A DNA stretch of 64,000 nt. It comes from an uncultured Selenomonadaceae bacterium. Lineage in GTDB: Bacteria; Bacillota; Negativicutes; Selenomonadales; Selenomonadaceae. This document shows positions 2,860-27,232 of this stretch, piece by piece. A program made the translations under genes and the position numbers. Each line of letters opens with the position of its first letter. Positions within the stretch are counted from its first letter, which is position 1. Location of the stretch: the NCBI GenBank assembly GCA_905234705.1, contig CAJOIB010000010.1, positions 6,616-70,615 on the forward strand, read 5' to 3'. A model generated the notes under the pieces. That model did no database searches and was not told where the DNA came from. It saw only the letters and a program-made list of their open reading frames with translations.

Positions 2860-3615
2860 ATGGAAATGAACACTGACACTATTTGCGGCGCAGATGTTTC
2901 CGATGAATATAGTAAATACGATTCTTTGACTGACGAGGAGCTCATTACCGAAATTAAAGACAACGTCAATACTTCGGCATTGGATTATCTGATTCACAGA
3001 TACAGAAGTTTCGTCAGGGCTAAGGCGCGTTCGTACTTTTTAATCGGAGCGGATCGCGAAGACATTATCCAAGAAGGCATGATTGGCTTTTACAAGGCGG
3101 TTAGAGATTTTAAAAGCGATAAACTTTCGTCATTCCACGCCTTTGCCGAATTGTGCGTGACGCGGCAGATTATCACCGCTATTAAAACTGCCACGCGTCA
3201 AAAACATATCCCGCTAAATTCCTACGTTTCGCTGAATAAGCCGATTTACGACGAAGATTCAGACCGGACTTTGCTTGACGTAATTTCGGGCGTGAAAGTT
3301 GCCGACCCAGAGGAATTAGTGATAAGCCGCGAAGAATTTTTAGCTATCGAAAAAAAGATGGAGGAAATTTTGAGCGACCTTGAATGGCAGGTTTTAATGG
3401 CTTATCTGGACGGCAAATCTTACCAGGAAATTGCAATGAGCCTTAACCGCCATGTCAAATCAATCGATAACGCCCTGCAGCGCGTCAAACGCAAACTTGA
3501 GCGCTACGTCGCCAGCCGCAGTGAATCTATCGATATTGGCACGGTTTACCGCGGACTCTCGACGATTGACCGGCATTTAAAATCTTCTGCGCGACATCCT
3601 ATCCCGCTCGATTAA
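2860..3615 (+). CDS. sigH: RNA polymerase sigma factor SigH (sigma-70 family, sporulation/transition state type)
   Basis: 251 aa: ...ALDYLIHRYRSFVRAKARSYFLIGADREDIIQEGMIGFYKAVRDFKSDKLSSFHAFAELCVTRQIITAIKTATRQKHIPLN.... This is the characteristic SigH region 2. The C-terminal region 4 is ...SYQEIAMSLNRHVKSIDNALQRVKRKL. Confidence 0.8.
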   Translation: MEMNTDTICGADVSDEYSKYDSLTDEELITEIKDNVNTSALDYLIHRYRSFVRAKARSYFLIGADREDIIQEGMIGFYKAVRDFKSDKLSSFHAFAELCVTRQIITAIKTATRQKHIPLNSYVSLNKPIYDEDSDRTLLDVISGVKVADPEELVISREEFLAIEKKMEEILSDLEWQVLMAYLDGKSYQEIAMSLNRHVKSIDNALQRVKRKLERYVASRSESIDIGTVYRGLSTIDRHLKSSARHPIPLD

Positions 3616-4875
3616 TCAATCTGCACTCTCCCGCCAATGACGCTGGAGGGCTTTTTTAATTTCCGCTTCATAGCCAATTTCCGTCGGCTGATAATAATTT
3701 TTTTGAAACGGCAGATATTGTTGTTTGACAAAATGCTCCGGAAAATCATGCGGATATTTATAACCTTCACCATTGCCGAAAAAATTTGCGCCCTTGTAAT
3801 GAGTATCGCGTAAATGTTTTGGAATTTCAGCGTCAATTTTTTTAACGTCAGCAAGCGCCGCGTCAATCGCCAAATACGCCGCATTACTTTTCGGCGCGCC
3901 CGCAATGTACGTTACCGCCTGCGCGAGAATAATTCTGGCTTCGGGCAAACCAACAAATTGAGCCGCCTGTGCCGCCGCATTCGCCAATATCAACGCCCGC
4001 GGATCTGCATTGCCGACATCTTCAGCCGCGCATATCACAATTCGCCGCGCTATGAAATTTAAATCTTCGCCGCCGTCAATCATTTTCGCCAAATAAAAAA
4101 TCGCCGCGTCCGCGTCACTGCCGCGCATACTTTTTATAAACGCGCTCGCCGTGTCGTAATGATTATCGCCGCCCTTGTCATAGCGCCTGGTTTTTTCGCC
4201 AAAAATTTCGCGCAGATTTTCAACGCTCACGCCGCCACTAAAAATTAATTGCTCCAAAATATTCAGCGCAACCCGCGCATCGCCATCAGCAAATTCTGCA
4301 ATAATTTCAAGCGCCGATTCTTCAGCACTTTCGCCATTGAGCGCCCGCTGGAGGATTTTTTTTATTTCAGCGGCAGTCAATTTTTCCAGCCGAATGATTT
4401 TCACGCGGCTTAAAAGCGCAGGATTCACTTCAAAAAATGGATTTTCAGTCGTCGCGCCAATCAATATCAAACGCCCGTCCTCAACGTACGGCAACAGAAA
4501 ATCTTGTTGACTTTTGTTAAAGCGGTGAATTTCATCGATAAATAAAATCGTCCGGCGGCTGTAAAAATTTTTCAAATCGTCAGCGTCCTTGACAATTTCG
4601 CGCAGATCTTTAATTCCGGAAAGTGCGGCGTTGATTTTGACAAAATTGCTCTGCGTGGTATTCGCGATAATCTTTGCCAACGTAGTTTTGCCAGTGCCAG
4701 GCGCGCCATAAAAAATCATCGACATTAAGCGATTTTCCGCAATCATTTTGCCGAGAACGCGCATAATTTTTTCCTGCCCAACAAAATCACTGAGATTTTG
4801 CGGACGCATTTTCTCAGCCAGCGGTTGAAAATCAGTATCGCCCGCCATTTCAAATAAATTAATTTCACGTTTCAT
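3616..4875 (-). CDS. rarA: Replication-associated recombination protein A (MgsA/RarA AAA+ ATPase)
   Basis: Walker A GAPGTGKTT, Walker B ILFIDEIHRFNK, the TTENPFFEVNPALLSR motif and the C-terminal MgsA domain (DAAIFYLAKMIDGGED). I set the start at the ATG at 4875 (MKREINLFEMAGD...). The 80-aa upstream extension in the track overlaps a gene remnant. Confidence 0.9.
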   Translation of the reverse strand: MKREINLFEMAGDTDFQPLAEKMRPQNLSDFVGQEKIMRVLGKMIAENRLMSMIFYGAPGTGKTTLAKIIANTTQSNFVKINAALSGIKDLREIVKDADDLKNFYSRRTILFIDEIHRFNKSQQDFLLPYVEDGRLILIGATTENPFFEVNPALLSRVKIIRLEKLTAAEIKKILQRALNGESAEESALEIIAEFADGDARVALNILEQLIFSGGVSVENLREIFGEKTRRYDKGGDNHYDTASAFIKSMRGSDADAAIFYLAKMIDGGEDLNFIARRIVICAAEDVGNADPRALILANAAAQAAQFVGLPEARIILAQAVTYIAGAPKSNAAYLAIDAALADVKKIDAEIPKHLRDTHYKGANFFGNGEGYKYPHDFPEHFVKQQYLPFQKNYYQPTEIGYEAEIKKALQRHWRESAD

Positions 4876-15292: not shown

Positions 15293-16217
15293 ATGGCGAA
15301 CGATAAAGCACGCCGAGGCGACGAAACTGCCGGCGATAAGAAGGGTATTCTGCTTGAAACCGGTACTAATGAATTTGAAATTGTCGAGTTCAGCATTGGC
15401 AAAGTTAATTACGGAATAAATGTTGCGAAAGTCCGTGAAGTCATTCAGCGCGCGCCGGTTACCGCAATGCCGCAGGCTCACCCGTACATTGACGGGCTTT
15501 TTACCCTGCGCGGCAAAGCTATTCCGCTGGTTAATCTTCCGCGCTGTTTGAATGTGGCGTCCGGCGAAGAAGCTAAAAATATTATCGTTACTGAAATTAA
15601 TAATTACGGCATTTTGGAAAGACATGGAACCCGCGCCCGAAGTCGGCGACCAATCGCGCGTTGTCGGTATTATTAAAATGAGCGACCGAATTGTCCTGTT
15701 GCTCGACTTTGAAACGATTATTGCGGAAATTAATCCGGAAATTAACGCGAAACTTACCACGGTTGAAGACGCCACTGAAGATACCCGTTCGATGCGCTCA
15801 AATATTCACGTGGTTGTTGCGGAAGATTCGGCTATGTTGCGCGATTTGCTTGTTACGACTTTGCACGATTCGGGCTACAGATTTGTTCGCGATTTCGGCA
15901 ACGGTATGGACGCTTGGGAATATCTGCGCACTCTCGCCAACAAAGATGGTCCTATTCATATGCACGTGGGTATCATTGTTTCTGACGTTGAAATGCCGAA
16001 AATGGACGGGCACAGACTTTTGAAACTCGTCCGCGATAACGACCGCCTGCATGAAGTTCCATTTGTACTGTTTTCTTCGTTGATTAGTGAAGAAATGCGC
16101 TTAAAGGGCGAATCACTTGGGGCGAGCGCGCAAATTTCTAAGCCGGAAATTAATCAGCTGATTGATATTCTCGACAAGCTGATTTTCGGAAAAACTTTGA
16201 AGCCGGTACAAGATTAA
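15293..16217 (+). pseudogene. cheV: Chemotaxis protein CheV (CheW domain + receiver), disrupted by an internal deletion and frameshift
   Basis: Frame 1 encodes the CheW-like N-terminus (...TGTNEFEIVEFSIGKVNYGINVAKVREVI...IIVTEINNYGI). Frame 3, from about 15612, encodes FWKDMEPAPE...VVGIIKMSDRIVLLLDFETIIAEINP plus a complete receiver domain (VVVAEDSAMLRD...VSDVEMPKMDG...SKP). About 13-14 codons are missing at the junction. Confidence 0.75.
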
Positions 16218-16244: not shown

Positions 16245-16279
16245 AAAATGCATTCGTGAAAACGAGTGCGTTTTTTTTT
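16245..16279 (+). terminator. Rho-independent terminator after cheV, abutting the RBS of the next operon
   Basis: GCATTCG-TGAAAA-CGAGTGC hairpin (one G.U pair) with an A-tract upstream and a T9 run at 16271-16279. The GGAGAGGGG RBS starts at 16280. Confidence 0.65.
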
Positions 16280-16296
16280 GGAGAGGGGCAACTTCT

Positions 16297-19248
16297 ATGC
16301 AGAAAAATCTTACCACCGCGGAAAAAATTTCTGATTTGTTGCAGAGCCATTCAAATTTGGAAATTTCTAATCCGTACAGTTTGAAAAGCGACGAACTTGA
16401 AGCCAACGAAATTTGCTTTTACAAAATAAATCTGCTGACATTCGACGAAGAATATCCGCACCGCGAGGCGTTTGAAAATGTTTTGCAGAGCCTTGACAAT
16501 GCGGCTTTTAATTTCGTGTACATTCTCAGCGGCGACGAGCGCGGCATCGAACTTTATATCGGCGTGGTGAAAAATCACAACGAAAATCAGCCCGTCCTCG
16601 GCAAACTTTTGAACGCGGCGAATTACGGAAAAAATATCGCGGGCGCATTTGCGGGGAATTTCGGCGGCAGTTCCCTTGAAAAATTAACCGGTCAAAATTT
16701 GACAAACGCCGTGATAAATTCTGCGCGACAATTCAAAAACGCGGGCGTCATTGTCGGTATCCCGTCCGTCAACGAAACCAAGGACAGCAAATACGGTTTC
16801 CAGGGGATTGACAGGCTGATAAACAGTATGCTCGGCGCGAAATGGCGAATTGTGGTTGTTTGCGAGCCGGTGAATAAATCTGAAATTGCGAAAATCCGCA
16901 GCGAAGTTTACAATCTTTACAATGAATTAGCGCCGCTCGCCCGTCAATCCGTTCAAAAATCTACCAGCAGTAATCAGACGCTGAGCCGCGGCACAAACGA
17001 ATCTACCACTAAGGGCACGAATTATTCTGACAGCGAAAGTTCGTCCGATTCGCACGGCAAACAAAATGATAATTCAAATTCGAGCCACTCCGACCAGACA
17101 AGCAAATCTTACGGCGAAAGTACGACAAAAACCACCGGCAGCAATGAAAGTACCGGCGTCAGTTCCGGCAGTTCGAGCGCGGTTACTTTGGAAATTGCGA
17201 ATAAGCAGGCGGCGGAAATTATTGACTACATCGACAATGAACTTTTGGAGCGCGTGAAAATCGGATTCAGCCGCGGCTTTTTCAAAACTTCGATTTATTA
17301 TATGGGCGAAAAGCCGATTGACGCCGAGCGCCTCAAAGTTGGAATTATTTCGTTGTTTCAAGGCAGCGGCTCATCGTATAGTCCGTTGCGCGCGTATCCG
17401 CTGAATGTCGAGCGCGATTTTAAAATTTTAAACAGTTACCAAAGTTTTTACATCAGCAATGAAAATAATTTGCCAGAAAAATTGACGCTGGCGAGCCGCC
17501 CGCATTTTGACAGCCGCCTTGGTTTGAATACCTATTTGACGTCGGGCGAAGTCAGCCTAATCGCTGGTTTGCCGCAAAAAGAAATTCCTGGTATCACCGT
17601 GAAGGAGAGCGTCGAATTTGGTTTGAATTTTAATCAGAGCGACGGCGAGATTATTTTGGGCAATTTGATTCAGAAGGGGCGCGAATTGCCTAGCATTCCA
17701 ATGAAAATCAGCCGCGAAGTTTTGAGCAAACACGTCTTTATTGCTGGCGTGACTGGTTCGGGCAAAACTACGACCTGCCACAAAATTTTGACGGAAGCCG
17801 CGGTTAAATTTTTGGTGATTGAGCCTGCGAAAACTGAATACCGCGCGCTGATAAATTCGCCGCATTTCGGCAACGTCGTTGTCTTTACGGTGGGCGACGA
17901 ATTGACCGCGCCTTTTCGGTTGAATCCGTTTGAATTGGTGCGCGGCGAAAGTGTTTCTGCTCACGTCGATATGTTGAAGGCTACGTTTACTTCGTCTTTC
18001 CCAATGGAAGCGTCGATGCCGCAGATTTTGGAAGAGGCGATTTACAAAATTTACGAAGACAAGGGCTGGGACATTGACACAAATAAAAATTATCTGATTG
18101 AGGCGCGCGCCGATTATAAAATTGGTGATGAATTTCGCGCAGAATTTGATACTTTTCCGACGCTGACTGATTTTTTGACGGCGCTTGAAAAAATTGTTGA
18201 CGAAAAAGGATTTAGCGACCGCCTGCGCGACGATTATCGCGGCTCACTGATTAGCCGGTTTTCCAATTTGACGAAAGGCTCAAAGGGCGCGCTTTTCAAC
18301 TGTCGCCGCTCGATTGATTTTGAAAAACTGATTAATCAAAACGTCGTCATTGAAATGGAAAATTTGAAATCGGCGGAAGATAAGGCGCTGTTAATGGGAT
18401 TTATTTTAACGCGGCTGGCGGCGGTTATCAAACGGCGAAACAAATTGGATAAAAATTTCCGGCACATAACGCTGATTGAAGAGGCGCACCGGCTTTTATC
18501 GAAAGTTGAATTAGGCGACGGCGGCTCAAAGCGGACGGCGGTTGAAACTTTCACAGATTTACTCGCGGAGATTCGCAAGTACGGCGAAAGTCTGATAATC
18601 GTTGACCAGATACCGAATAAACTTGCGCCCGAAGTTTTGAAAAATACCAACACGAAAATAATTCACCGGCTTTTTGCGCGCGACGACAAAGAAGCGGTTG
18701 GTGATACGATGCTGATGGACGACAAGCAGAAAGAATATTTATCGGCGCTGGAAACTGGGCAGGCGATTATTTTTAGTGAAGGAATGCGCCGCCCCGCGCA
18801 CGTCAAGATTCAGAGCGTGACGGATACCGGCGACAGCGTTGTTGACAATGACGCCGTTAAATCGCAGTTTGTCAAAAATTTTGGCGCGTGGTATTGCGAT
18901 TTGGAAATTTCGCGCAGGTTTAATCGGGCGGTTTATGATTTGCTGAAAAAAATTGCGGTTGAATATCTCGACAAAAATTCATTGGAAATTGAAACTTTAA
19001 ATGCTGTGGCGAAAATTCGCTCGGCTGTGAAAAATTTCTGCGCGACTTTCGATTTTGAAGAAATTGCGGCGGCTGACGTTACGAAATATCTTGCGGAAGA
19101 ATTTACAAGACTCAAAGCAGGTGATAAAATTTTTGAACGGCGGCTTGAGAATTTTCTGAATTTGCTGATTGGCGATTTTACTTTGGAAAAAATTTCGGGT
19201 GACAGGGAAAATTTGAAGTTGCTGATAAATATTAAACGAGAATTTTAA
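16297..19248 (+). CDS. Large HerA/FtsK-superfamily (DUF87-like) ATPase with an unknown N-terminal domain and a Ser/Thr-rich linker
   Basis: 983 aa. Walker A is IAGVTGSGKTTT (about nt 17744-17776). Walker B/sensor is HITLIEEAHRLL (about nt 18463-18492). The HerA-type C-terminal block is LAEIRKYGESLIIVDQIPNKLAPEVLKNTNTKIIHRLFARDD. Residues ~215-300 are low-complexity Ser/Thr/Asn (GTNESTTKGTNYSDSESSSDSHGKQNDNSNSSHSDQTSKSYGESTTKTTGSNESTGVSSGSSS). Confidence 0.7.
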   Translation: MQKNLTTAEKISDLLQSHSNLEISNPYSLKSDELEANEICFYKINLLTFDEEYPHREAFENVLQSLDNAAFNFVYILSGDERGIELYIGVVKNHNENQPVLGKLLNAANYGKNIAGAFAGNFGGSSLEKLTGQNLTNAVINSARQFKNAGVIVGIPSVNETKDSKYGFQGIDRLINSMLGAKWRIVVVCEPVNKSEIAKIRSEVYNLYNELAPLARQSVQKSTSSNQTLSRGTNESTTKGTNYSDSESSSDSHGKQNDNSNSSHSDQTSKSYGESTTKTTGSNESTGVSSGSSSAVTLEIANKQAAEIIDYIDNELLERVKIGFSRGFFKTSIYYMGEKPIDAERLKVGIISLFQGSGSSYSPLRAYPLNVERDFKILNSYQSFYISNENNLPEKLTLASRPHFDSRLGLNTYLTSGEVSLIAGLPQKEIPGITVKESVEFGLNFNQSDGEIILGNLIQKGRELPSIPMKISREVLSKHVFIAGVTGSGKTTTCHKILTEAAVKFLVIEPAKTEYRALINSPHFGNVVVFTVGDELTAPFRLNPFELVRGESVSAHVDMLKATFTSSFPMEASMPQILEEAIYKIYEDKGWDIDTNKNYLIEARADYKIGDEFRAEFDTFPTLTDFLTALEKIVDEKGFSDRLRDDYRGSLISRFSNLTKGSKGALFNCRRSIDFEKLINQNVVIEMENLKSAEDKALLMGFILTRLAAVIKRRNKLDKNFRHITLIEEAHRLLSKVELGDGGSKRTAVETFTDLLAEIRKYGESLIIVDQIPNKLAPEVLKNTNTKIIHRLFARDDKEAVGDTMLMDDKQKEYLSALETGQAIIFSEGMRRPAHVKIQSVTDTGDSVVDNDAVKSQFVKNFGAWYCDLEISRRFNRAVYDLLKKIAVEYLDKNSLEIETLNAVAKIRSAVKNFCATFDFEEIAAADVTKYLAEEFTRLKAGDKIFERRLENFLNLLIGDFTLEKISGDRENLKLLINIKREF

Positions 19249-19264
19249 TTTAGGGGGAAGCTTT

Positions 19265-19900
19265 ATGTCAATTTTTGGAGCAATTTTTTCTGGGATAAGT
19301 AGCGTGCTGAGCGTAGTGTCAAATGTATTCACGCCGATTTTGACGAAAATTCTTGGACCGGCGCTTGAGAAACTTGGGCGGGCGTTTGAGGCTTTTTTCA
19401 AAGAATTGGGGTTGATTGAGCCGGAAGAGAAAGTTGAAGAAATTGGAGACCGCGCATTGCAGGCGGAAGTCGACGAAATTCATCCGGTTAAAATTGAAAC
19501 TTTCGACAATCACGAAAAATATTTGGCGGCGCTCAAAGAATATGAGCCGAGCGCTGAAAAATCCGCGCTGATTCCGGTTGACGATAAACTTCACAAAGGG
19601 CTTGAGGTTTTAATGGGGCTGGCGATTTCGCGCTACGGGCAGTCTATGAGCGAATTTGGGCAGATTATTTTGAATAACCCCGAATTTTACAGTCAATTTG
19701 GCAGGCTGGCGGAAATTGGCAGTATCGCCCGCGATAAAACTGAAACTTTCGCCGATATCGTGAATTACATTGCGGGCAAAAGTATGAGCAGCGAAAAAAC
19801 TGACACGGCGATTGACGCGCTCGTTGACATTGAGAAAAAAGTTAATCCGGAGGCGACTGACGCTGAAATTTTGAAAACTGTTAGCGATTTGAAAAAGTGA
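19265..19900 (+). CDS. Hypothetical protein with small-residue-rich hydrophobic N-terminus
   Basis: 211 aa. The N-terminus is MSIFGAIFSGISSVLSVVSNVFTPILTKILGPAL (Gly/Ser-zipper-like), followed by an acidic helical region. A GGGGGA RBS lies 16 nt after the upstream stop. Confidence 0.6.
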   Translation: MSIFGAIFSGISSVLSVVSNVFTPILTKILGPALEKLGRAFEAFFKELGLIEPEEKVEEIGDRALQAEVDEIHPVKIETFDNHEKYLAALKEYEPSAEKSALIPVDDKLHKGLEVLMGLAISRYGQSMSEFGQIILNNPEFYSQFGRLAEIGSIARDKTETFADIVNYIAGKSMSSEKTDTAIDALVDIEKKVNPEATDAEILKTVSDLKK

Positions 19901-20373
19901 GGCGATTGATTTTGTTGCAATATTTTTTAGTTATCTGCAAAAATCGGTTTTACGTTTACCGAACTGACGGCGCGCCGGAATATTTTGGTGGCAATGATTA
20001 TTTTGAATATGAGCAGAGCAAGATTCGCGAGGCGGCGGCTCAACTTGTCGAGGAAATTTTGAGCAACAACAATCTTGCCGACAGAAACGAATTACAATTT
20101 GCGCTGATTGAGAATAGCGACGCCGTGCGCAATGAGATTGTGCTGAAGGAACTGAAGAATTTGGTAGTTCAGCGTTACGCGGTGAATGATTTAGTTTACG
20201 CGGCGATGGTTGATTTGGCTAAAAATCCTGCGCTGTACATTCGCGAATTGGGCGTAAATTATGACGGCGAAAGTCACCATTTGGACGCGAATAATCCGAT
20301 GTGGCGGGGCGCTTATAGTTTGCTGGCGTTGACGATTGAGCCGATTGAATTGTTAAAGCGCGTGGGGAGGTAG
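19897..20373 (+). CDS. Hypothetical protein
   Basis: 158-aa ORF. Its GTG start overlaps the upstream stop (GTGA). No family recognised. The start codon is uncertain. Confidence 0.5.
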   Translation: MRRLILLQYFLVICKNRFYVYRTDGAPEYFGGNDYFEYEQSKIREAAAQLVEEILSNNNLADRNELQFALIENSDAVRNEIVLKELKNLVVQRYAVNDLVYAAMVDLAKNPALYIRELGVNYDGESHHLDANNPMWRGAYSLLALTIEPIELLKRVGR

Positions 20374-20377
20374 TTTT

Positions 20378-21922
20378 ATGGAAAAGATTATTTGTGGCAA
20401 ATGTCACGCCGAGAATAATGCAAAGCGGCATTTCTGCGCGAAGTGCGGGGCTTTTCTGCACACGGATTTTGACGCGAAAGTTTATGCGTTGCCGGAAGTT
20501 AAAATGATGCGCGTTGTGGAAAATTTATTGCGAGTTCCGCACCAGCCAATAAATTGGGACGACGTGACGGACGCTTACACGGCGAAGGCTGAAAAATGGC
20601 AGGCGCTGTTCAATGTCCCTGGAATGGGCGCGGAAACAAATTCTGCGGTTGTCGAGAAGATTGAAGATTTTTTGAATCTGTGCCGCAATGCCGATTTTCA
20701 AATTGCGTTCGTCGGTACGATTAAAACGGGCAAATCGACGCTGATAAATGCGCTGTTAGGCAAAGAATACGCGTCAATGGACGTGACGCCGGAAACCGCC
20801 GCTTTGACGAAATTTCGTGCCAGCCCGCGCGATTATGTTGACGTGACTTTTTACACGCAAAAGGAATGGGACAACCTTTGGGCTTCGCGCTCCAAGGACG
20901 CAACCGATTTTATGAAGGAATACGAATTGCTTGACGGCGATTCGCAAAAATCTAAATGGATTAATCAGCCGCAGCGCCATATCGAAATGGCTAACGAAGA
21001 TATTCAGCAGGAATTAAAAATTTGGTCGAGTTCACAGCGGGTGGAACATTATTTCGTCAAGGAAATTGAAGTTGGAATTTCGACGTTGCCGCGGGATTTT
21101 CCGGCGCAGGTTGTATTCGTCGACACGCCAGGATTATCAGATCCGGTTGCATATCGTTCGGAGCTGACGAAAAATTATATCCGGCGGGCAAATGCGGTTT
21201 TCGTTTGCGTCGAGGCGCAGAAAATGATGTTCGAGGAAATGAACACAATCCAATCGGTAATGTCGCTGTCTTCGCACGACAAGAGCAAAGTTTTTGTCAT
21301 AGCCACGCACTGGGACACATTGCACGACCCAGAAACGGATTGGGCAAAGCAGAAAAATTTTTACATTCGGCGCTTAACCGGACCGGCTTTTTATGACAAT
21401 CAGCAAATGGCGGCGGATAATATTTTGTATTCGGCGGCGTACATTTATAATCTGTGCAAAAATTTTCACGCGCTCGACCCGAATAACAGGGCTGATAAGC
21501 GGCAGATTCGCACGCTTGAAGATTTCGGCGATTATTTTGACTGCGCGCCCGACGATTTGCGGACGATTGGCGAAAAGACTAACATTGTGGCGATTAGGAA
21601 AATTATTCGCGACCGGCTCGCGGCGAATTATAAAAAATTTTTGGCGGGCGATATTAAGCGGAAATTTATGGACGTGAATTTTAATCTGAATCGCGTTGCC
21701 AGCGAAAATAAAGCGAGTATGATTGAGCGCTTAACGGCGTCCTATGCTGACGAACAAGAATTAGCCGCGAAATTGGATGAACAGCGCAAAAAATGCGATA
21801 ACGTCCGGCAAGTTTCCGACCAGCTTAACGAAATTATGAAGAAGGTTAAGCACAAGACTAAAACGCGCGCCGATGTTATTTGCGGGAAATTGCGGCTGAA
21901 ATTGAGCGAGTCGAAAAAATGA
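20378..21922 (+). CDS. Dynamin-like GTPase with N-terminal zinc ribbon
   Basis: Zinc ribbon is [20 protein letters not shown]1 is [16 protein letters not shown] (about nt 20714). G2-region Thr is [10 protein letters not shown]3 is [10 protein letters not shown] (about nt 21121). G4-like is VIATHWD. The C-terminal tail is helical and charged. Confidence 0.75.
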
Positions 21923-22863
21923 GCGCGGCTATAACTTTGCAGGAAATTTCTGCTAAATTGGATTATGGGCTGATAGGCGACGGCGCTTTGAAAGTTTCAG
22001 CGTTTAAATTTGCCGCGGAAGCTGATGAAAATTCTTTAGCGGTAGTACTCAGCGATAAAGAGGCGATTGACACTGCGGCGCGTGCGGTATTGACGACGCC
22101 GAGGATTTTGCCGATTGATAAAACTTTTCTGTACTGCAATTTTAAAAAGATGAGCGCGGCGATAGTTGACGTTGCGCGGCTGATGATTGACGCCGGAATT
22201 TATCCCGATTATGAAAAAAATTTTGAGCAGGTTGAAAAGCACTGCGCGATGTTCGGTAAAAATTTTGAGATTGGTGAAGGCAGTTACGTTGGCGCTTTTG
22301 CAAATATCGGCGAAAATGTTAAAATTGGCAGGAATTGTAAGATTGGCGCGGGCGTTTATATCGGCTCTGACGTTGAGATTGGCGACGGCGTGAAAATTCA
22401 TTCTGGCGCGCGGATTGGCGCTAATTGCCATTATCATTTTACGCAACACCACAAGCAGAAAAGTTTTTGCGGGATTGGGCGGGCGCTGATTGAAGATGGC
22501 GTTGAAATTGGCTACAACACGGTGATTCAGCGCGGCTCTTTGTCCGATACCGTGATTGGCGCGGGTACGATTATTGGCAATTTGGTTGAGATTGGACACG
22601 ACGTAAAAATCGGCAAAGATTGTTTGATAGTTTCGCAGGCGGGCATATGCGGCGGCGTGGAGATTGGCGAACGGGTTCAGATTTACGGGCAAGTTGGAAT
22701 TGCTGACAGGGTTAAAATTGGCAGCGACGCAACGATTATGGCGAAATCCGGCGTTACCAAAGACATTCGCGCAGGGCAAGTTGTTTCGGGAATGTTCAGC
22801 CGCAGTCATTTAGACGAATTGAAACGGCAGGCGAAATTTAGGAAACTGACTAAGGGGGAATAG
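21919..22863 (+). CDS. LpxD-like left-handed beta-helix N-acyltransferase (out of lipid A context)
   Basis: The ATG overlaps the dynamin-like stop (ATGA). It has an LpxD-type N-terminal domain ([43 protein letters not shown]), hexapeptide repeats, a conserved catalytic-His context ([10 protein letters not shown]) and an LpxD-type C-terminal helix ([17 protein letters not shown]). Confidence 0.7.
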
Positions 22864-22866
22864 ACT

Positions 22867-23658
22867 ATGGGCGGAGGCGGTGGCTGCGGAGATATTTGTT
22901 GCATTACGCATTGCGGCTTTTGCTGTGTTTTTAAATGCAGTGACTGCGGCGATTGTTGCGTGGGTCATTGTAGCGGAGATTGTGGCGGTACTCGTGTTTC
23001 CAGTGGCGGTGGCGGTTGTTCTGATTATCAAGAAGATCCGCAAACTCGGCACGCGGAGATTATTGCTAACGAATTGGCGGAAATGAAGAAGCGCTCGACT
23101 GAGGACGCCAAACGCGAAGAGGACGCCATTCTCAAAGACATTAACGAAACCATGGACGAATTTATTGATTGGCTCAAAAAAATTAACAGCGAACCGTACG
23201 GCGGGCGCAGTCTGAATATTAATATCACGAAAATTAATGAGCTCAATGAAGAATTGCGAAACGCGGTTATCGGCTCAATCGGCAAACATTTGGATTCTAA
23301 GCTGGTTATGACTGACGAAAACGTCAAGCTGATTCTTTCCGATATGAATGATAAGACGCGCAAGAAAAAATTTGACGAGTTTTATCGGCAAACTCTGCGC
23401 GACGCTATTAGGAATTTGATTAAAATTATTGAAGATTCCGTTCAAAAACAATCTGAGAGTATCGAGCGCGAAATTCAAAATCGCATTAATGAAGTCCAGC
23501 AAAGTATGTCCGAAGAGGCGGGCGCGTTTGAGGAACTTCAGCAGATTAAACAGCAGAAAAATTTAGGTATGGCGGAAAAACGCGTTGAATATATGTACTA
23601 CGAAAATCTGTGCGATATTATGTTCGACCAGCTGAAACTTTCCGGCATTAAAAGGTGA
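22867..23658 (+). CDS. Cysteine-string / coiled-coil protein
   Basis: 263 aa. The N-terminus is MGGGGGCGDICCITHCGFCCVFKCSDCGDCCVGHCSGDCGGTRVSSGGGGCSDY, with 13 Cys in 51 residues. The remaining ~200 aa are charged heptad-like helices. An AAGGGGG RBS lies 8 nt upstream. Confidence 0.7.
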   Translation: MGGGGGCGDICCITHCGFCCVFKCSDCGDCCVGHCSGDCGGTRVSSGGGGCSDYQEDPQTRHAEIIANELAEMKKRSTEDAKREEDAILKDINETMDEFIDWLKKINSEPYGGRSLNINITKINELNEELRNAVIGSIGKHLDSKLVMTDENVKLILSDMNDKTRKKKFDEFYRQTLRDAIRNLIKIIEDSVQKQSESIEREIQNRINEVQQSMSEEAGAFEELQQIKQQKNLGMAEKRVEYMYYENLCDIMFDQLKLSGIKR

Positions 23659-23664
23659 TTCGCT

Positions 23665-25011
23665 ATGCTCAATTTAATTTCCGGAAATGAAAATATTCTT
23701 GCGCTGATGTACGCTATGTCGAGCGATTTGGATTTGAAAGATAATTCCGCGCGTTTGGAAAATCTTCGCGCAGTGGTGGAAAATTCGGCGGAAGTCAAGC
23801 CGTCGGTTTTCAATTATCACGTCGAGGCGGCGGAAAAAATTTTGATTTACAATACGCTTTACAATTCAATGACTTGGTTAACGAAAGAGGAATTTGCTCA
23901 ACTTGGCGGCGAAATTTTTGATGACGAATTGCGGCGGAATTTTCTTGAGAGCGGAATTTGCGTGGCGGCGAATGTTGACGAGCGGGCGAATTATCATAAG
24001 TGGCGGATTCTTTTTCAAAAAAAGTCCGAGCATTTGTCGGTGAATATTACCACGACGCTGAAATGCAACGCGCGCTGTCCCTATTGCTACGAGCACGGCG
24101 TCAAGCACATTGACTTTGATGACACTAAGATTGACGCGCTGATAGATTTTATTAAGCGGCACAAAAAAAATTCGCCGGTTAAACTGAATTGGTTTGGCGG
24201 CGAACCTTTTATGAATCCGAAAATTATTGACACCGTGACGCGGCGGCTCGGCGAAATCGGCTTTCCATTTTTCTGCTACGCCATTACCAACGGAAATTTA
24301 TTGACGCGGCAAATGATTAATACCAAATTCAAGCAATGGCATATTCGCGGCGTTCAGATAACTTTGGACGGCACGGCGGAACAATACGCGGCGCGCAAAA
24401 ATTATACCGGCAATCAGCGCGATGTTTTCAAAAAAATTTTAAATCGTATTCAATGGCTCGCTGAAGCAAATATTCACGTTGACGTGCGGCTGAATATCGA
24501 CCGCCAAAATCTGTGCGATATGCTCAATCTTATTTACATTTTGCAGGCGCGTTTTGACGGCGAAAAAAATATTTGTTATTATCCGGCGTTTGTTACGGGC
24601 TTGCAGGATAAATTGACTGAAACTGAGAAATTAGATTTTGTCAAGGAAATGTTTAACGCGGTTGCCAATTCCGCCAAACTCAGCATTACAAATCGGCTGT
24701 ATTCTTTCCCGCGCAGTATTCCGTGTATGCGCAATGATCCGCAGTCATTTTCTGTTGATGTTTACGGGCGGATTTATAATTGTGAGCATTTGGTCGGGCG
24801 CGCTGAAAAATCGTTAGGAACTTTAAAACGTTTGCCGACAAAAATTAATGACGCGCGGCTTGAAGAAAATCTGCGCGAGGAATGCGGAAGTTGCGTATTT
24901 CTGCCGAAATGTATGGGCGGCTGTGCGTCGAATTTGGAAACCGGCGATAGCGCGTGCCTGATTGAAAAATATTTAATTAAAGCATATATGCAGTATATGT
25001 GCGAACGCTAG
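23665..25011 (+). CDS. Radical SAM enzyme with C-terminal SPASM domain (peptide/protein maturase type)
   Basis: The CxxxCxxC motif is CNARCPYC (nt 24064-24087). The SPASM motifs are CMRNDPQSFSVDVYGRIYNC (Cx13Gx4C) and CGSCVFLPKCMGGC (Cx2Cx5Cx3C). The N-terminal ~110 aa resemble the RRE/PqqD-like leader-binding region of such maturases (ILIYNTLYNSMTWLTKEEFAQL...LESGICV). Confidence 0.85.
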   Translation: MLNLISGNENILALMYAMSSDLDLKDNSARLENLRAVVENSAEVKPSVFNYHVEAAEKILIYNTLYNSMTWLTKEEFAQLGGEIFDDELRRNFLESGICVAANVDERANYHKWRILFQKKSEHLSVNITTTLKCNARCPYCYEHGVKHIDFDDTKIDALIDFIKRHKKNSPVKLNWFGGEPFMNPKIIDTVTRRLGEIGFPFFCYAITNGNLLTRQMINTKFKQWHIRGVQITLDGTAEQYAARKNYTGNQRDVFKKILNRIQWLAEANIHVDVRLNIDRQNLCDMLNLIYILQARFDGEKNICYYPAFVTGLQDKLTETEKLDFVKEMFNAVANSAKLSITNRLYSFPRSIPCMRNDPQSFSVDVYGRIYNCEHLVGRAEKSLGTLKRLPTKINDARLEENLREECGSCVFLPKCMGGCASNLETGDSACLIEKYLIKAYMQYMCER

Positions 25012-25020
25012 GAGGTAAAA

Positions 25021-25383
25021 ATGGACGACATTGCAAAAATTTTGGAACAGCAGGAAGAAATTTTACGCTCAATACACCGGCTGGAGGAAGAAGTTAGCCT
25101 AATCAAATTTTTACACCACAGTCAGTACGACGAAACAAATGCGCGGCTTGAAATGTTCGAGCGGTCATTGCGGCAAATCGACGAACAACTTGCACTTTCA
25201 AATATGAGCCAAGAATCGCGCGACGACAAAATAAAAAAATTGCTTAGTGAATTTCAGCGTGCGAATCAATCGCGGCGGCTGAATATGATTGAAGAATTGC
25301 TCCGGTTAATCGCCGCCAATCAGATAATGGATTCGCTCGAACCGCCGAAAAAACCGCGGGGCAATAAATCGCAGAAAAAATAA
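25021..25383 (+). CDS. Small coiled-coil protein, hypothetical
   Basis: 120 aa, predicted helical and charged (ILEQQEEILRSIHRLEEEVSLIKF...), with a basic tail (PPKKPRGNKSQKK). An AGGAGG RBS lies upstream. Confidence 0.55.
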   Translation: MDDIAKILEQQEEILRSIHRLEEEVSLIKFLHHSQYDETNARLEMFERSLRQIDEQLALSNMSQESRDDKIKKLLSEFQRANQSRRLNMIEELLRLIAANQIMDSLEPPKKPRGNKSQKK

Positions 25384-25400
25384 TCTTGGGAGGAATTTTA

Positions 25401-26795
25401 ATGAGCATACTAGCTTCGGTCGTAGTACCGCACCCGCCTATCATTTTGCCGGAAATTGGCAAGGGCGAAGAATCCAAAATCGCCGCAACTACCGCCGCTT
25501 ATAAAGAAATTTCAAAGCGCGTGGTCGAACTTGCGCCCGATACGATTGTTATCACCAGCCCGCACTCGATTATGTACGCGGATTATTTTCACATTTCGCC
25601 TGGCGAATCGGCTAGCGGGAATATGGCGAGATTTCGCGCGCCCGAAGTCGATTTGACTATTAACTATGACGTTGAATTTGTTGACAAATTGAGCGCGGCG
25701 GCTATGGCTGAAAATATTCCCGCCGGTAAAATTGGCGAGCGCGAAAAAAGTTTAGACCACGGCACGATGATTCCGCTTTATTTTTTGGAAAAAGCAGGTT
25801 TAGATTTTGACGCGGTTAAATTTTTGCGCATAGGGCTTTCTGGTTTGCCCGCGGCGGCGCATTATCATTTTGGGCAGGTTATTTCAAAGGTTGCGGACGA
25901 ATTGAACAGGCGCGTTGTATTCGTGGCGAGCGGTGACCTTTCGCACAAACTCAAAGCGGATGGTCCTTACGGTTTTGTTGAAGAAGGTCCGAAATTCGAC
26001 GCCGAGGTTATGGAAAATTTATCCGACGAAGATTTTTTGAAATTGTTGACGATGGATAATACGATGTGCAATCGCGCGGCTGAATGCGGCTTGAGGAGTT
26101 TTTGGATAATGGCGGGCGCGCTCGATAAAAAATCCGTTCAAGCTGAAAAATTGTCCTATGAAGGACCTTTCGGCGTTGGCTACGGCGTTGTTTGGTTTAA
26201 CATTAACGGCGTTGACAGTTCGCGGAATTTTGCCGCCAAGCTTGAAAATTTTAAGCATGAAGAATATTTAAAGCGCATTGAAACTGAAGACGAATACGTG
26301 AAACTGGCGCGCTACAGCCTTGAAACTTACATTAAGACGCACAAGGCGGCGGAAATGCCCAAAGATTTGCCTGCTGAAATGTTGAATCGGCGTTCGGGAA
26401 CTTTCGTCAGTCTTCATAAAGACGGGAATTTGCGCGGCTGTATCGGAACATTTTTGCCGACAACTGAATCTATCGCGCAGGAGATTTTGCAAAACGCCAT
26501 TTCTGCCTGTTCGAGAGACCCGCGCTTTTCGCCGGTCGAAGAATCCGAAATTGAAGACCTTGACATCAGCGTTGACGTTTTGTCTGAACCGGAGCGAATT
26601 TTTGACGTCAAAGATTTGGACGCAAAAAAATACGGCGTTATCGTCGAGAACAACGGACGCCGCGGTTTATTGTTGCCGGATTTGGAAGGCGTTAATACCG
26701 TGCAAGAGCAACTCGCCATCGCTATGAAAAAAGGCGGTATCCCCGCCAATGAAAAAGTTAACGTGTGGCGTTTCCAAGTAATTCGCCATCATTAA
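25401..26795 (+). CDS. Fusion of class III extradiol dioxygenase-like (LigB/Memo superfamily) domain and AMMECR1 domain
   Basis: N-terminal domain: VVPHPPIILPE...ITSPHS...SLDHGTMIPLYFL...VASGDLSHKL. C-terminal AMMECR1 domain: SGTFVSLHKDGNLRGCIGTF...ACSRDPRFSPV...YGVIVENNGRRGLLLPDLEGV. Start set at the ATG at 25401 after a GGGAGGA RBS. Confidence 0.8.
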   Translation: MSILASVVVPHPPIILPEIGKGEESKIAATTAAYKEISKRVVELAPDTIVITSPHSIMYADYFHISPGESASGNMARFRAPEVDLTINYDVEFVDKLSAAAMAENIPAGKIGEREKSLDHGTMIPLYFLEKAGLDFDAVKFLRIGLSGLPAAAHYHFGQVISKVADELNRRVVFVASGDLSHKLKADGPYGFVEEGPKFDAEVMENLSDEDFLKLLTMDNTMCNRAAECGLRSFWIMAGALDKKSVQAEKLSYEGPFGVGYGVVWFNINGVDSSRNFAAKLENFKHEEYLKRIETEDEYVKLARYSLETYIKTHKAAEMPKDLPAEMLNRRSGTFVSLHKDGNLRGCIGTFLPTTESIAQEILQNAISACSRDPRFSPVEESEIEDLDISVDVLSEPERIFDVKDLDAKKYGVIVENNGRRGLLLPDLEGVNTVQEQLAIAMKKGGIPANEKVNVWRFQVIRHH

Positions 26796-27232
26796 ATCGC
26801 CGCATCTTCGTAATTTTCTTCATCGTCATAAGATGGAGTATTTAAATTGTCCCAAAAAATTCTGTAGTTCATACTGGATTTGACTTGCCCGCGCGCCGGA
26901 CAATCCGCGTCTTTGTGCGTGAAAATGTGATGAACTTCCTGCCCCGACGGAACAATTAATTCTTTCGGATAAAAATGAACATTTCGCGCAGACCAAATCC
27001 AAAAGTCGTTGTTGTTCACTGCGCGAATGTTTTCCAGTAAAAAGTGCGTGATTCTGGCATCCTGGTCGCCGGAATTTATGAAGTGCCCGTATAAAACCGC
27101 TTGCCCTTCATTCAAAATGAGTTTATCGGCTTGAAATTTCAAATTCGCTCCGGCGCTCGCAACGCCATTTGCAAAAATAAAAATCGCAACAGCCATAATC
27201 GCCGCAACAAAAAAATTTTTCAAGATAATCAC
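26792..27232 (-). CDS. Hypothetical exported protein
   Basis: 146 aa with an N-terminal signal/anchor (FFVAAIMAVAIFIFANGVASA). No family recognised. Its stop overlaps the stop of the convergent AMMECR1 gene (TTAA). Confidence 0.5.
   Translation of the reverse strand: MIILKNFFVAAIMAVAIFIFANGVASAGANLKFQADKLILNEGQAVLYGHFINSGDQDARITHFLLENIRAVNNNDFWIWSARNVHFYPKELIVPSGQEVHHIFTHKDADCPARGQVKSSMNYRIFWDNLNTPSYDDEENYEDAAI

Follow-up and report, generated by a model that had tools for sequence, protein, structure and literature searches.

An eight-gene cassette of gut and rumen anaerobes pairs a predicted VirB4-like ATPase with a dynamin-like GTPase: a possible membrane-acting defence system

The closest described relatives of the locus reported here each resemble one part of it. 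Eleos (LeoA/LeoBC) has a dynamin-like GTPase with a separately encoded helical, membrane-directed piece, LeoB and LeoC together making up a split dynamin. The VirB4 ATPases of type IV secretion systems (T4SS), TrwK among them, have a two-domain architecture and are encoded beside the small hydrophobic protein VirB3, and P-loop ATPases of the FtsK-HerA superfamily occur in the HerA-scaffold systems (SIR2-HerA/Nezha, DUF4297-HerA) and as DndH and MADS mad8. PapB, CefB and QhpD are radical S-adenosylmethionine (SAM) maturases, LpxD is an acyltransferase of lipid A synthesis, and the GTPase-centric conflict systems with DO-GTPase and GAP1 (Kaur et al. 2020, PMC7159879) have an architecture different from that of our locus. 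Here we describe an eight-gene cassette at positions 16297-25383 of a 64,000-nt stretch of contig CAJOIB010000010.1 from an uncultured Selenomonadaceae bacterium; "the window" denotes this whole stretch, and coordinates are window positions unless another locus is named. An earlier note, made from the sequence alone, had known of no described system with such a composition, and this has stood: no system in PADLOC-DB v2 was matched, and no description of the gene set was found in the literature searched. The cassette is new at the system level and built from known domain families; to our knowledge, both the combination of its parts and a dynamin-partner terminus matured, as we propose, by a radical SAM enzyme are undescribed. 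Its genes, with the left junction and the gene that follows, are:

16249-16296, + strand: left junction of the insertion, the cheV terminator-like hairpin and T9 run (16249-16277) followed by the g1 Shine-Dalgarno sequence, GGAGAGGGG (read directly)
16297-19248, + strand: g1, 983 amino acids (aa), predicted VirB4-like ATPase
19265-19900, + strand: g2, 211 aa, constant partner of g1
19897-20373, + strand: g3, 158 aa, small protein of the g3/gX family; the start may lie a few codons later
20378-21922, + strand: g4, 514 aa, Zn-ribbon dynamin-like GTPase
21919-22863, + strand: g5, 314 aa, diverged LpxD paralogue
22867-23658, + strand: g6, 263 aa, putative dynamin partner with a Cys-rich N-terminus and a helical bundle
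23665-25011, + strand: g7, 448 aa, radical SAM/SPASM maturase
25021-25383, + strand: g8, 120 aa, small coiled-coil protein, last gene of the cassette
25401-26795 (ATG at 25401), + strand: g9, 464 aa, LigB/Memo-AMMECR1 fusion, outside the cassette

We group g1, g2 and the g3/gX-family protein as module M1, and the g4 GTPase with its helical partner g6 as module M2. It is M2 that recalls Eleos, and the M2-only relatives described below, with a dynamin, two helical proteins and often a WYL regulator, resemble a simple dynamin defence locus. However, the PADLOC matches are weak and partial (LeoA 44 bits and LeoBC 33 bits on g4; LeoBC on g6 at E 0.004), the NF041922 score of 33 falls far short of the family cut-off of 325, a second full dynamin is missing, and the partner g6 carries a Cys-rich or amphipathic tip rather than transmembrane helices. 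The cassette dynamin is also joined to a predicted VirB4-like module, an LpxD-like acyltransferase and a radical SAM enzyme. The ATPase g1 shares the FtsK-HerA P-loop superfamily with the HerA-scaffold systems, DndH and mad8, its C-terminal half giving 84 bits with MADS mad8 and up to 71 bits with HerA models (PADLOC). In contrast to the HerA systems, no NurA, SIR2, DUF4297 or other nuclease partner was found in g2-g8 with Pfam, NCBIfam and PADLOC, and the N-terminal half of g1 is VirB4-like in the predicted model, not a HAS barrel. In PADLOC-DB v2, g2, g3, g5, g8 and g9 had no matches, and the other cassette proteins matched, partially, only generic HerA, mad8, LeoA and viperin-type models.

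Window positions 16297-25383 are an eight-gene accessory cassette inserted between cheV and g9. A tblastn search with all nine proteins found g1-g8 in the same order in five genomes of the genus (uncultured rumen Selenomonadaceae) at 41-96% identity. At the empty site of a cassette-free genome, G003, an intact cheV, a terminator hairpin and a Shine-Dalgarno sequence lead directly to g9, and the cassette is therefore an insertion. The gene g9 follows the block only in the two closest of the five genomes; in a further one, G028, the block sits elsewhere, with ispG on one side and a coiled-coil gene with metG on the other, and g9 is not within 4.4 kb downstream. All four genus genomes tested carry g9, including the cassette-less G003 and G016, and in G028 it is on another contig. 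The protein is a fusion of AmmeMemoRadiSam proteins B and A (TIGR04335 133.7 against a cut-off of 99; TIGR04336 26.1 against 26) whose dedicated radical SAM partner lies outside the window (G000:C71, TIGR04337 244.7 against 220). Membership of g9 in the cassette with g7 as its AmmeMemoRadiSam partner was therefore rejected: g9 is a resident housekeeping gene, a neighbour and not a member, and the nine-gene unit of the earlier note contracts to eight. The partner gene on C71 (G000:C71:6709-7536, L137) has one in-frame TGA, which could be a mark of a pseudogene, a sequencing error or a recoded codon.

The cassette belongs to a large family of two-module systems that has spread horizontally. With g6 as query, matches were found in 8 of 36 other species of the genus, five of them strong (E 1e-69 or better), and none in the 22 other families sampled. 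A scan with the g1 alignment, at one genome per species, returned 29 loci, from Selenomonadaceae, many Lachnospiraceae (the isolate Roseburia sp. AM59-24XD at L028 on NZ_QUET01000033, Dorea, Eisenbergiella, Oribacterium, Johnsonella and Eubacterium), Treponema, Brachyspira, Phascolarctobacterium and Succinivibrio. Outside the Selenomonadaceae the g1 relatives are 44-58% identical, which is high for such distant hosts and argues for horizontal spread; viral contigs scanned with the same alignment gave no relative. A metagenome scan with the dynamin alignment added 80 further loci, which were annotated with hidden Markov models (HMMs) built from the first locus set. The order g1-g2-g3-(gX)-g4-g5-g6-(g7) is common to Lachnospiraceae, a Treponema and about 30 metagenome loci, and more than 60 loci keep the same order across phyla, with flanks that differ between the Selenomonadaceae, Lachnospiraceae and Treponema copies. 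For the N-terminal region of g1 alone, relatives fall into 583 or more clusters at 90% identity, none with a name beyond "DUF87 domain-containing protein" or "predicted ATPase". Hosts of the family are anaerobes of the gut and rumen from several phyla, and cultured Roseburia and Megasphaera are among them. That the genes form a real functional unit recurring in unrelated genomes with different flanks, as first proposed, is thus borne out by synteny.

Three architectures were seen, and the system is therefore built from two separable modules. In architecture A the full system is present, and a WYL regulator and a small "c14" protein often lie at its two ends. Architecture C is M2 alone, a dynamin with two g6-like proteins and a small protein, at about 30 loci; within their 6-8 kb flanks these M2-only loci have no g1, g2, g5 or g7. 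M1 also occurs alone, as one to three copies of g1-g2-gX with no dynamin, in Treponema, Johnsonella and Phascolarctobacterium. One Lachnospiraceae copy (L030, 15291-15788) keeps g1-g2-g3-gX, has its dynamin truncated to 165 aa and is missing g5-g6; it appears to be decaying.

In the window, nine open reading frames (ORFs) lie on the + strand from 16297 to 26795, with gaps of 16, -4, 4, -4, 3, 6, 9 and 17 nt at the eight junctions, as tightly packed as had been reported. The block opens with g1 at 16297, and the start given before, 16245, lies in the leader. The overlaps are a GTGA at 19897-19900 (g2/g3), placed correctly from the outset, and an ATGA at 21919-21922 (g4/g5), for which the previous "19919" was a typing error. 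A Shine-Dalgarno sequence had been ascribed to each ORF; it is clear for six of the nine (g1, g2, g4, g6, g8 and g9), weak for g7, and lacking at the overlapping starts of g3 and g5. Tight spacing and gene order are retained in orthologous blocks across the whole range of identity given above, far beyond chance, and from spacing and conservation we infer that g1-g8 form a single transcription unit.

The motor of M1 is best understood from its predicted structure. An AlphaFold2 (AF2) model of g1 made with 23 homologues (predicted local distance difference test, pLDDT, 74.5) shows a VirB4-type N-terminal domain (30-434), within which residues 219-296 form a disordered Ser-rich insert, then a RecA-like ATPase domain (443-844), and lastly a helical domain at the C-terminus. 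In VIA comparisons of this predicted model, residues 443-844 matched VirB4 of T. pseudethanolicus (4ag5; Z 25.5 over 337 aa, root-mean-square deviation (rmsd) 4.1) and residues 30-434 matched the N-terminal domain of TrwK/VirB4 from R388 (8rtd_h; Z 16.3 over 265 aa, rmsd 3.8), while the C-terminal domain of DndH gave Z 24.8 and HerA chains about Z 18. The two-domain architecture of VirB4/TrwK is thus matched in the model, with the differences that g1 carries the 80-aa Ser-rich insert and the extra C-terminal helical domain. Walker A (G484-T493) and Walker B (T725/E728/E729) are invariant in the 23 homologues. At the level of sequence models, Pfam DUF87 (PF01935) is matched at 33.9 bits against a cut-off of 23.2 and g1 falls in the FtsK-HerA superfamily, with scores below the family cut-offs for VirB4 (TIGR00929 18.3 against 643; NF045975 50.8 against 590, and 51-67 bits across copies) and below the HerA equivalog cut-offs (NF040937 72 against 800; NF042943 57 against 800). 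The "serine-rich protein" family NF033849 is related to g1 (161 bits against a cut-off of 650; over the cut-off in 1 of 301 genomes), a relationship that gave no functional lead. On the predicted fold, g1 is a full-length VirB4-like ATPase of the hexameric type with intact Walker motifs, and not a classic HerA. The original label of HerA/FtsK-type ATPase survives at superfamily level and gives way at family level, where the predicted fold is VirB4-like over both domains.

Beside g1, g2 occupies the place that VirB3 has beside VirB4, and it adjoins g1 always, at no fewer than 25 loci. Its N-terminal 30-50 aa are hydrophobic and rich in Gly, Ala and Ser, with the highest hydropathy of the block (KD19 1.77 at residue 1), and are followed by a helical domain with a conserved ELGDKALQAE. 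It is, however, twice the size of VirB3, and the likeness is one of position and hydrophobicity, not demonstrated homology. The N-terminal ~70 aa of g3 are homologous to the N-terminus of gX (hhalign probability 95%, E 2.4e-8), a protein of ~350 aa in the relatives with variable C-terminal domains, for example FGE-sulfatase/C-lectin. Neither g2 nor g3 has a Pfam, NCBIfam or PADLOC family match; the Protein Atlas gave only unnamed clusters for both, with structural rows for g3 at TM about 0.3 and a g3 record that begins at residue 6, and the g3 and gX profiles gave nothing significant against sequences in the PDB. They are nevertheless not the "two orphans" for which they had been taken, being conserved families present in all relatives. 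In Treponema, g1-g2 modules occur with a gX fused to an FGE-sulfatase domain of C-lectin fold (L034 4885-6534, L047 5033-9617, L046 5476-7410), and in L047 gX is followed by an LRAT-family acyltransferase and an ankyrin-repeat protein, a second, unrelated type of acyltransferase found with g1-g2.

The GTPase of M2, g4, has an N-terminal Zn ribbon (C6, C9, C20, C23), a dynamin-type GTPase domain and a short helical stalk. Its identification as dynamin-like was confirmed by Dynamin_N (PF00350; 70.5 bits against a cut-off of 27) and by G1 (G113-T121) and G3 (D249-G252) motifs invariant in 16-19 homologues; sequence matches in the PDB include 5owv (E 3e-16) and 2j68. It is about 180 aa shorter than BDLP and has no paddle and no transmembrane or hydrophobic segment, the maximum KD19 being 1.08, in the P-loop. 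Its partner g6 belongs to a helical family of ~250 aa that co-occurs with g4 in every architecture having a dynamin. Residues 1-57 of g6 are disordered and Cys-rich, with a Met-Gly start and CC pairs in CCxG[D/N]-type pentads, and residues 58-258 form a confidently predicted helical bundle (AF2 pLDDT 81.7). Complex predictions for g4-g6 gave ipSAE (interaction prediction score from aligned errors) values of 0.76, 0.76 and 0.67, against 0.00 for the best of three controls; among solved complexes 58 of 80 reached that ipSAE mark, as did 2 of 110 mismatched pairs, counts that are only rough because our own alignments were used. At least 83% of contacts were common to the runs, with a partner pLDDT of at least 76, and the predicted interface joins g4 17-90 and 428-512 with g6 84-125 and 174-261, so placed that g6 packs against the N- and C-terminal stalk helices of g4. 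The modelling supports binding of g4 to g6.

Other ideas about g6 found no support in the searches. That it might be a PspA/Vipp1/ESCRT-III protein was prompted by the amphipathic MGLF/MGFF starts of M2-only relatives; g6 had no Pfam match, its profile found nothing in the PDB, Foldseek gave E 0.49 against 6zvr, and the VIA list was mostly generic helical bundles at Z 10 or below, so that neither profile nor fold searches were supportive. Comparison of g6 with the g4 stalk and with the coiled-coil protein of G028 (401 aa) showed no similarity, and homology to either was abandoned.

The maturase g7 bears directly on the tip of g6. Both of its domains are recognised (Radical_SAM PF04055 46.6 against 29.5; SPASM TIGR04085 39.1 against a cut-off of 27), and C134xxxC138xxC141 and seven C-terminal Cys are conserved, which upholds its earlier assignment as a radical SAM/SPASM maturase. 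It has the CxxxCxxC and SPASM Cys of the PapB, CefB and QhpD maturases, and its nearest HMMs are the equivalogs CefB, Clo7bot and TIGR04463 (Cys-rich-peptide maturases) and PapB, all below their cut-offs (CefB 141 against 600; PapB 97 against 340). Among the 67 loci with enough downstream sequence, 36 have both a Cys-rich g6 N-terminus, taken as at least 3 Cys in the first 70 residues, and a radical SAM gene; 31 have neither, and no locus is discordant. Mapped on the g4 tree, the two traits change together each time, at three points, two of which are joint losses nested in the Cys-rich clade. The pentads of g6 repeat a Cys-x3-Asp/Asn spacing, and PapB substrates have a CxxxD/N spacing. In Cys-free relatives the g6 N-terminus is Gly/Ala-rich and hydrophobic or else amphipathic, which suggests that both forms serve as a membrane-binding tip. 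A Met-Gly start is present in all g6 homologues of the full system and in one of the two g6-like paralogues of each M2-only locus.

One could read the same features as a locus for a ribosomally synthesised and post-translationally modified peptide (RiPP) or bacteriocin, in which the Cys-rich N-terminus of g6 would be a ranthipeptide-like core, cross-linked by g7, cleaved and exported, with the other genes serving export and immunity. The kinship of g7 with the maturases just named, the PapB-like spacing of the pentads, the perfect co-variation and an ABC exporter after g7 in one Treponema locus all fit such a locus. However, the putative core is attached to a conserved helical domain of 200 aa for which binding to the dynamin is predicted, Cys-free relatives retain the rest of the system though they lack g7, the cassette has no peptidase or dedicated transporter, and the scores with specific maturase equivalogs are far below their cut-offs, as for CefB; we consider a RiPP locus quite improbable. 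Where g6 differs from the substrates of PapB, CefB and QhpD is that g7 would act on the N-terminus of a structural protein of 263 aa and not on a leader-core peptide, the chemistry being proposed by analogy. The picture sketched before, of a nucleotide-driven machine coupled to a post-translationally modified Cys-rich coiled-coil protein, is instead strengthened by the co-variation and by the predicted g4-g6 complex.

The acyltransferase g5 is a left-handed beta-helix protein with an LpxD N-terminal domain. It keeps the full-length LpxD fold, the trimeric beta-helix repeats and an invariant catalytic His (H227, aligned with the IAH His of 2iu8), and to this extent it is LpxD-like as had been stated; it differs in falling below the LpxD equivalog cut-off (TIGR01853 197.5 against 242.5) and in the replacement, in all copies, of three signature motifs (IDRG by IQRG, IDNLV by IGNLV, and the GxDGFGF loop). 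A chance neighbourhood of unrelated genes, with g5 simply working in lipid A synthesis, might be entertained since g5 passes the broad PRK00892 subfamily cut-off (211 against 207) and the host is a diderm with an lpx pathway. But the gene order kept across phyla, a bona fide lpxD elsewhere in the genome (G000:C25, 351.7 bits), g5 orthologues in monoderm Roseburia and other Lachnospiraceae, and the whole block being a single insertion/deletion difference from G003 make this exceedingly improbable, and synteny refutes it for practical purposes. Since g5 is diverged and occurs also in monoderms, its role is taken to be other than lipid A synthesis. In three Selenomonadaceae loci (L026 11077-12669, L027 15636-17339, L021 48-1550) an LpxD-like protein has an N-terminal half of its own that resembles g6, with a Met-Gly start, Cys-rich and coiled-coil; the fusions are 500-567 aa long and a separate g6 is also present. 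By sequence these fusions are a Rosetta-stone link, pointing to an association of g5 with g6. The idea that the Met-Gly start marks N-acylation by g5 was weakened, as Met-Gly is kept where g5 is absent.

The last cassette gene, g8, encodes a coiled coil with LIAANQIM near its C-terminus (residues 96-103, window 25306-25329) and follows g7 in all Selenomonadaceae copies; its C-terminal motif is also found in "c9" proteins at the same position in Lachnospiraceae. As a pattern, (L/M)(L/I)(L/A)(L/V/A)N(S/Q/D)(V/I)(M/L) lies at the C-terminal end of small coiled-coil proteins after g6/g7 and also near the N-terminus of small c14/c34 proteins flanking the system, its bearers being g8, c9, c11, c14 and c34 proteins in L028, L033, L062, L066, L078 and other loci. 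It may be a docking peptide. In four Selenomonadaceae copies (L018, L025-L027) a repetitive coiled-coil protein of 201-401 aa comes directly after g8 (in L018 401 aa, 3258-4463, - strand); it is absent from the window.

Taken together, a mechanism can be proposed. We suggest that g6 would supply in trans the membrane-binding tip that the short dynamin g4 lacks, a logic comparable to that of LeoB/LeoC. By analogy with PapB and QhpD, g7 would cross-link the CCxG(D/N) pentads of g6 through Cys-to-Asp/Asn thioethers and so produce a compact hydrophobic anchor, and g5 may transfer an acyl chain from acyl-ACP to an acceptor other than lipid A, either g6 or an envelope lipid. M1 would be held at the membrane by g2 and would use ATP hydrolysis to sense or move a macromolecule on its way in, and the g3/gX family would provide a variable, possibly ligand-binding, subunit of this membrane-associated g1-g2-g3 module. 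The whole would counter phages or conjugative DNA at the cytoplasmic membrane, which it would seal, remodel or collapse. That the cassette is a membrane-acting defence system of this kind is the least certain step; it is quite possible, and the likeliest of the roles considered, on the grounds of patchy presence within one genus, cross-phylum transfer, module shuffling and the WYL/WCX, NERD-UvrD and other defence-type neighbours. The fuller proposal, a new immune class in which a VirB4-derived motor works with a two-piece dynamin whose anchor is a thioether-cross-linked and perhaps fatty-acylated "cysteine string" made by a radical SAM enzyme and an LpxD-derived acyltransferase, is possible if doubtful. 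For a spore-assembly role, one of the candidates raised at the outset, there was nothing in favour.

The neighbours come from a pooled flank scan that reports families and not per-protein rates. WYL/WCX regulators account for 7 of 144 and 7 of 148 proteins in the flanks of the cassette, and in 11 loci the full system is followed closely, on the same strand, by a NERD-UvrD helicase of ~560 aa, which often comes with a WYL-WCX regulator (L028 20360-22045, L066 10299-11975, L067 13312-14988, L086 14950-16620 and seven more). The helicase could be a third module that is optional, or simply a defence gene that happens to lie nearby. Other neighbours include MADS mad3/mad6, PD-T4-6 kinases, a type I methyltransferase and a Pkinase-NB-ARC-TPR protein. 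In a Eubacterium metagenome-assembled genome (MAG), a 1439-aa protein kinase-NB-ARC-TPR protein (L045 5574-9893) ends 12 nt before the g1 homologue.

A non-immune membrane machine of T4SS descent would account for part of these data. In it the VirB4-like ATPase and g2 would extract or translocate small hydrophobic or lipid-modified proteins (g2, g6 or others), and the dynamin pair would remodel the membrane for vesicles, nanotubes, surface display or stress repair. VirB4 acts on membrane pilins, bacterial dynamins such as DynA are factors of membrane repair and fusion, and here the predicted likeness of g1 to VirB4 over both domains, the Gly/Ala-rich hydrophobic N-termini of g2 and Cys-free g6, and the housekeeping surroundings of the cassette in the genus of the window would all be in keeping with such a machine. 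However, scans with Pfam, NCBIfam and PADLOC found no VirB6-, VirB8- or VirD4-like partner, relaxase or peptidoglycan hydrolase in the cassette, no locus has any other T4SS part within it (relaxases occur only in some flanks), and TIGR00929 gives only 18 bits on g1. The patchiness in the genus, modular shuffling and recurrent WYL and NERD-helicase neighbours are typical of conflict systems and not of physiology, and we regard a non-immune machine as unlikely.

Several observations nonetheless weigh against the defence system and mechanism proposed above. VirB4-type ATPases are classically the motors of secretion and pili, which favours transport. The flanks in the window and its genus are housekeeping genes (cheV, oadB, ispG, metG), the defence-island signal comes only from other lineages and from counts with no background rate, and the relaxase and DUF932 genes found in some flanks are compatible with mobile elements that carry the cassette whatever its function. 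The g4-g6 complex is a matter of model confidence and not of measurement, and the solved dynamin pair 5owv may have helped it; the fold matches of g6 are generic (BAR domains, apoA-IV, dynamin stalks), with a best Z of 10.0 that is below the noise level for helical proteins. The co-variation of g7 with the Cys-rich tip amounts to only two or three independent events (sign test p 0.5). Finally, Met-Gly in g6 where g5 is absent does not point to g5 as the N-terminal acyltransferase, and so does not identify its target.

The borders of the insertion in the window are those first described, with a split cheV and its terminator-like hairpin on one side and a convergent ORF with an overlapping stop on the other. 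A single frameshift divides cheV into a CheW part (15293-15676) and a REC part (15552-16217), which lie in different frames where the G003 orthologue is in one; in this MAG the split may reflect a pseudogene or an assembly error. The hairpin and T9 run that follow end only 20 nt before the g1 ATG, and the same arrangement, hairpin and T-run and then Shine-Dalgarno sequence, precedes g9 in cassette-free G003 (L141 2905-2945, - strand). Set so directly before the Shine-Dalgarno sequence, the hairpin leaves no room for a promoter belonging to whatever follows cheV, which may hence depend on read-through or attenuation. In a consensus scan of the region, promoter and terminator counts were not above those of shuffled sequence. 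On the right, the g9 stop (26793-26795) overlaps by 2 nt the stop of an ORF at 26792-27232 (- strand), a 146-aa protein with a hydrophobic N-terminus, an acidic tail and no Pfam family.

At present these genes are annotated as "DUF87 protein", "LpxD" or "hypothetical", and in monoderms the LpxD label is misleading. If the proposed reading is true, the few membrane-based conflict machines listed for bacteria would be joined by a widespread one, with hundreds of protein clusters in Firmicutes and spirochaetes of the gut and rumen. The cassette would also offer a VirB4-type ATPase working outside secretion, a tractable dynamin with its membrane-binding element supplied in trans, and an LpxD paralogue with a new acceptor in bacteria that make no lipid A. 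Radical SAM/SPASM "peptide" maturases would then act on the terminus of a full-size structural protein, and RiPP-type chemistry would build the membrane anchor of a protein and not a peptide natural product.

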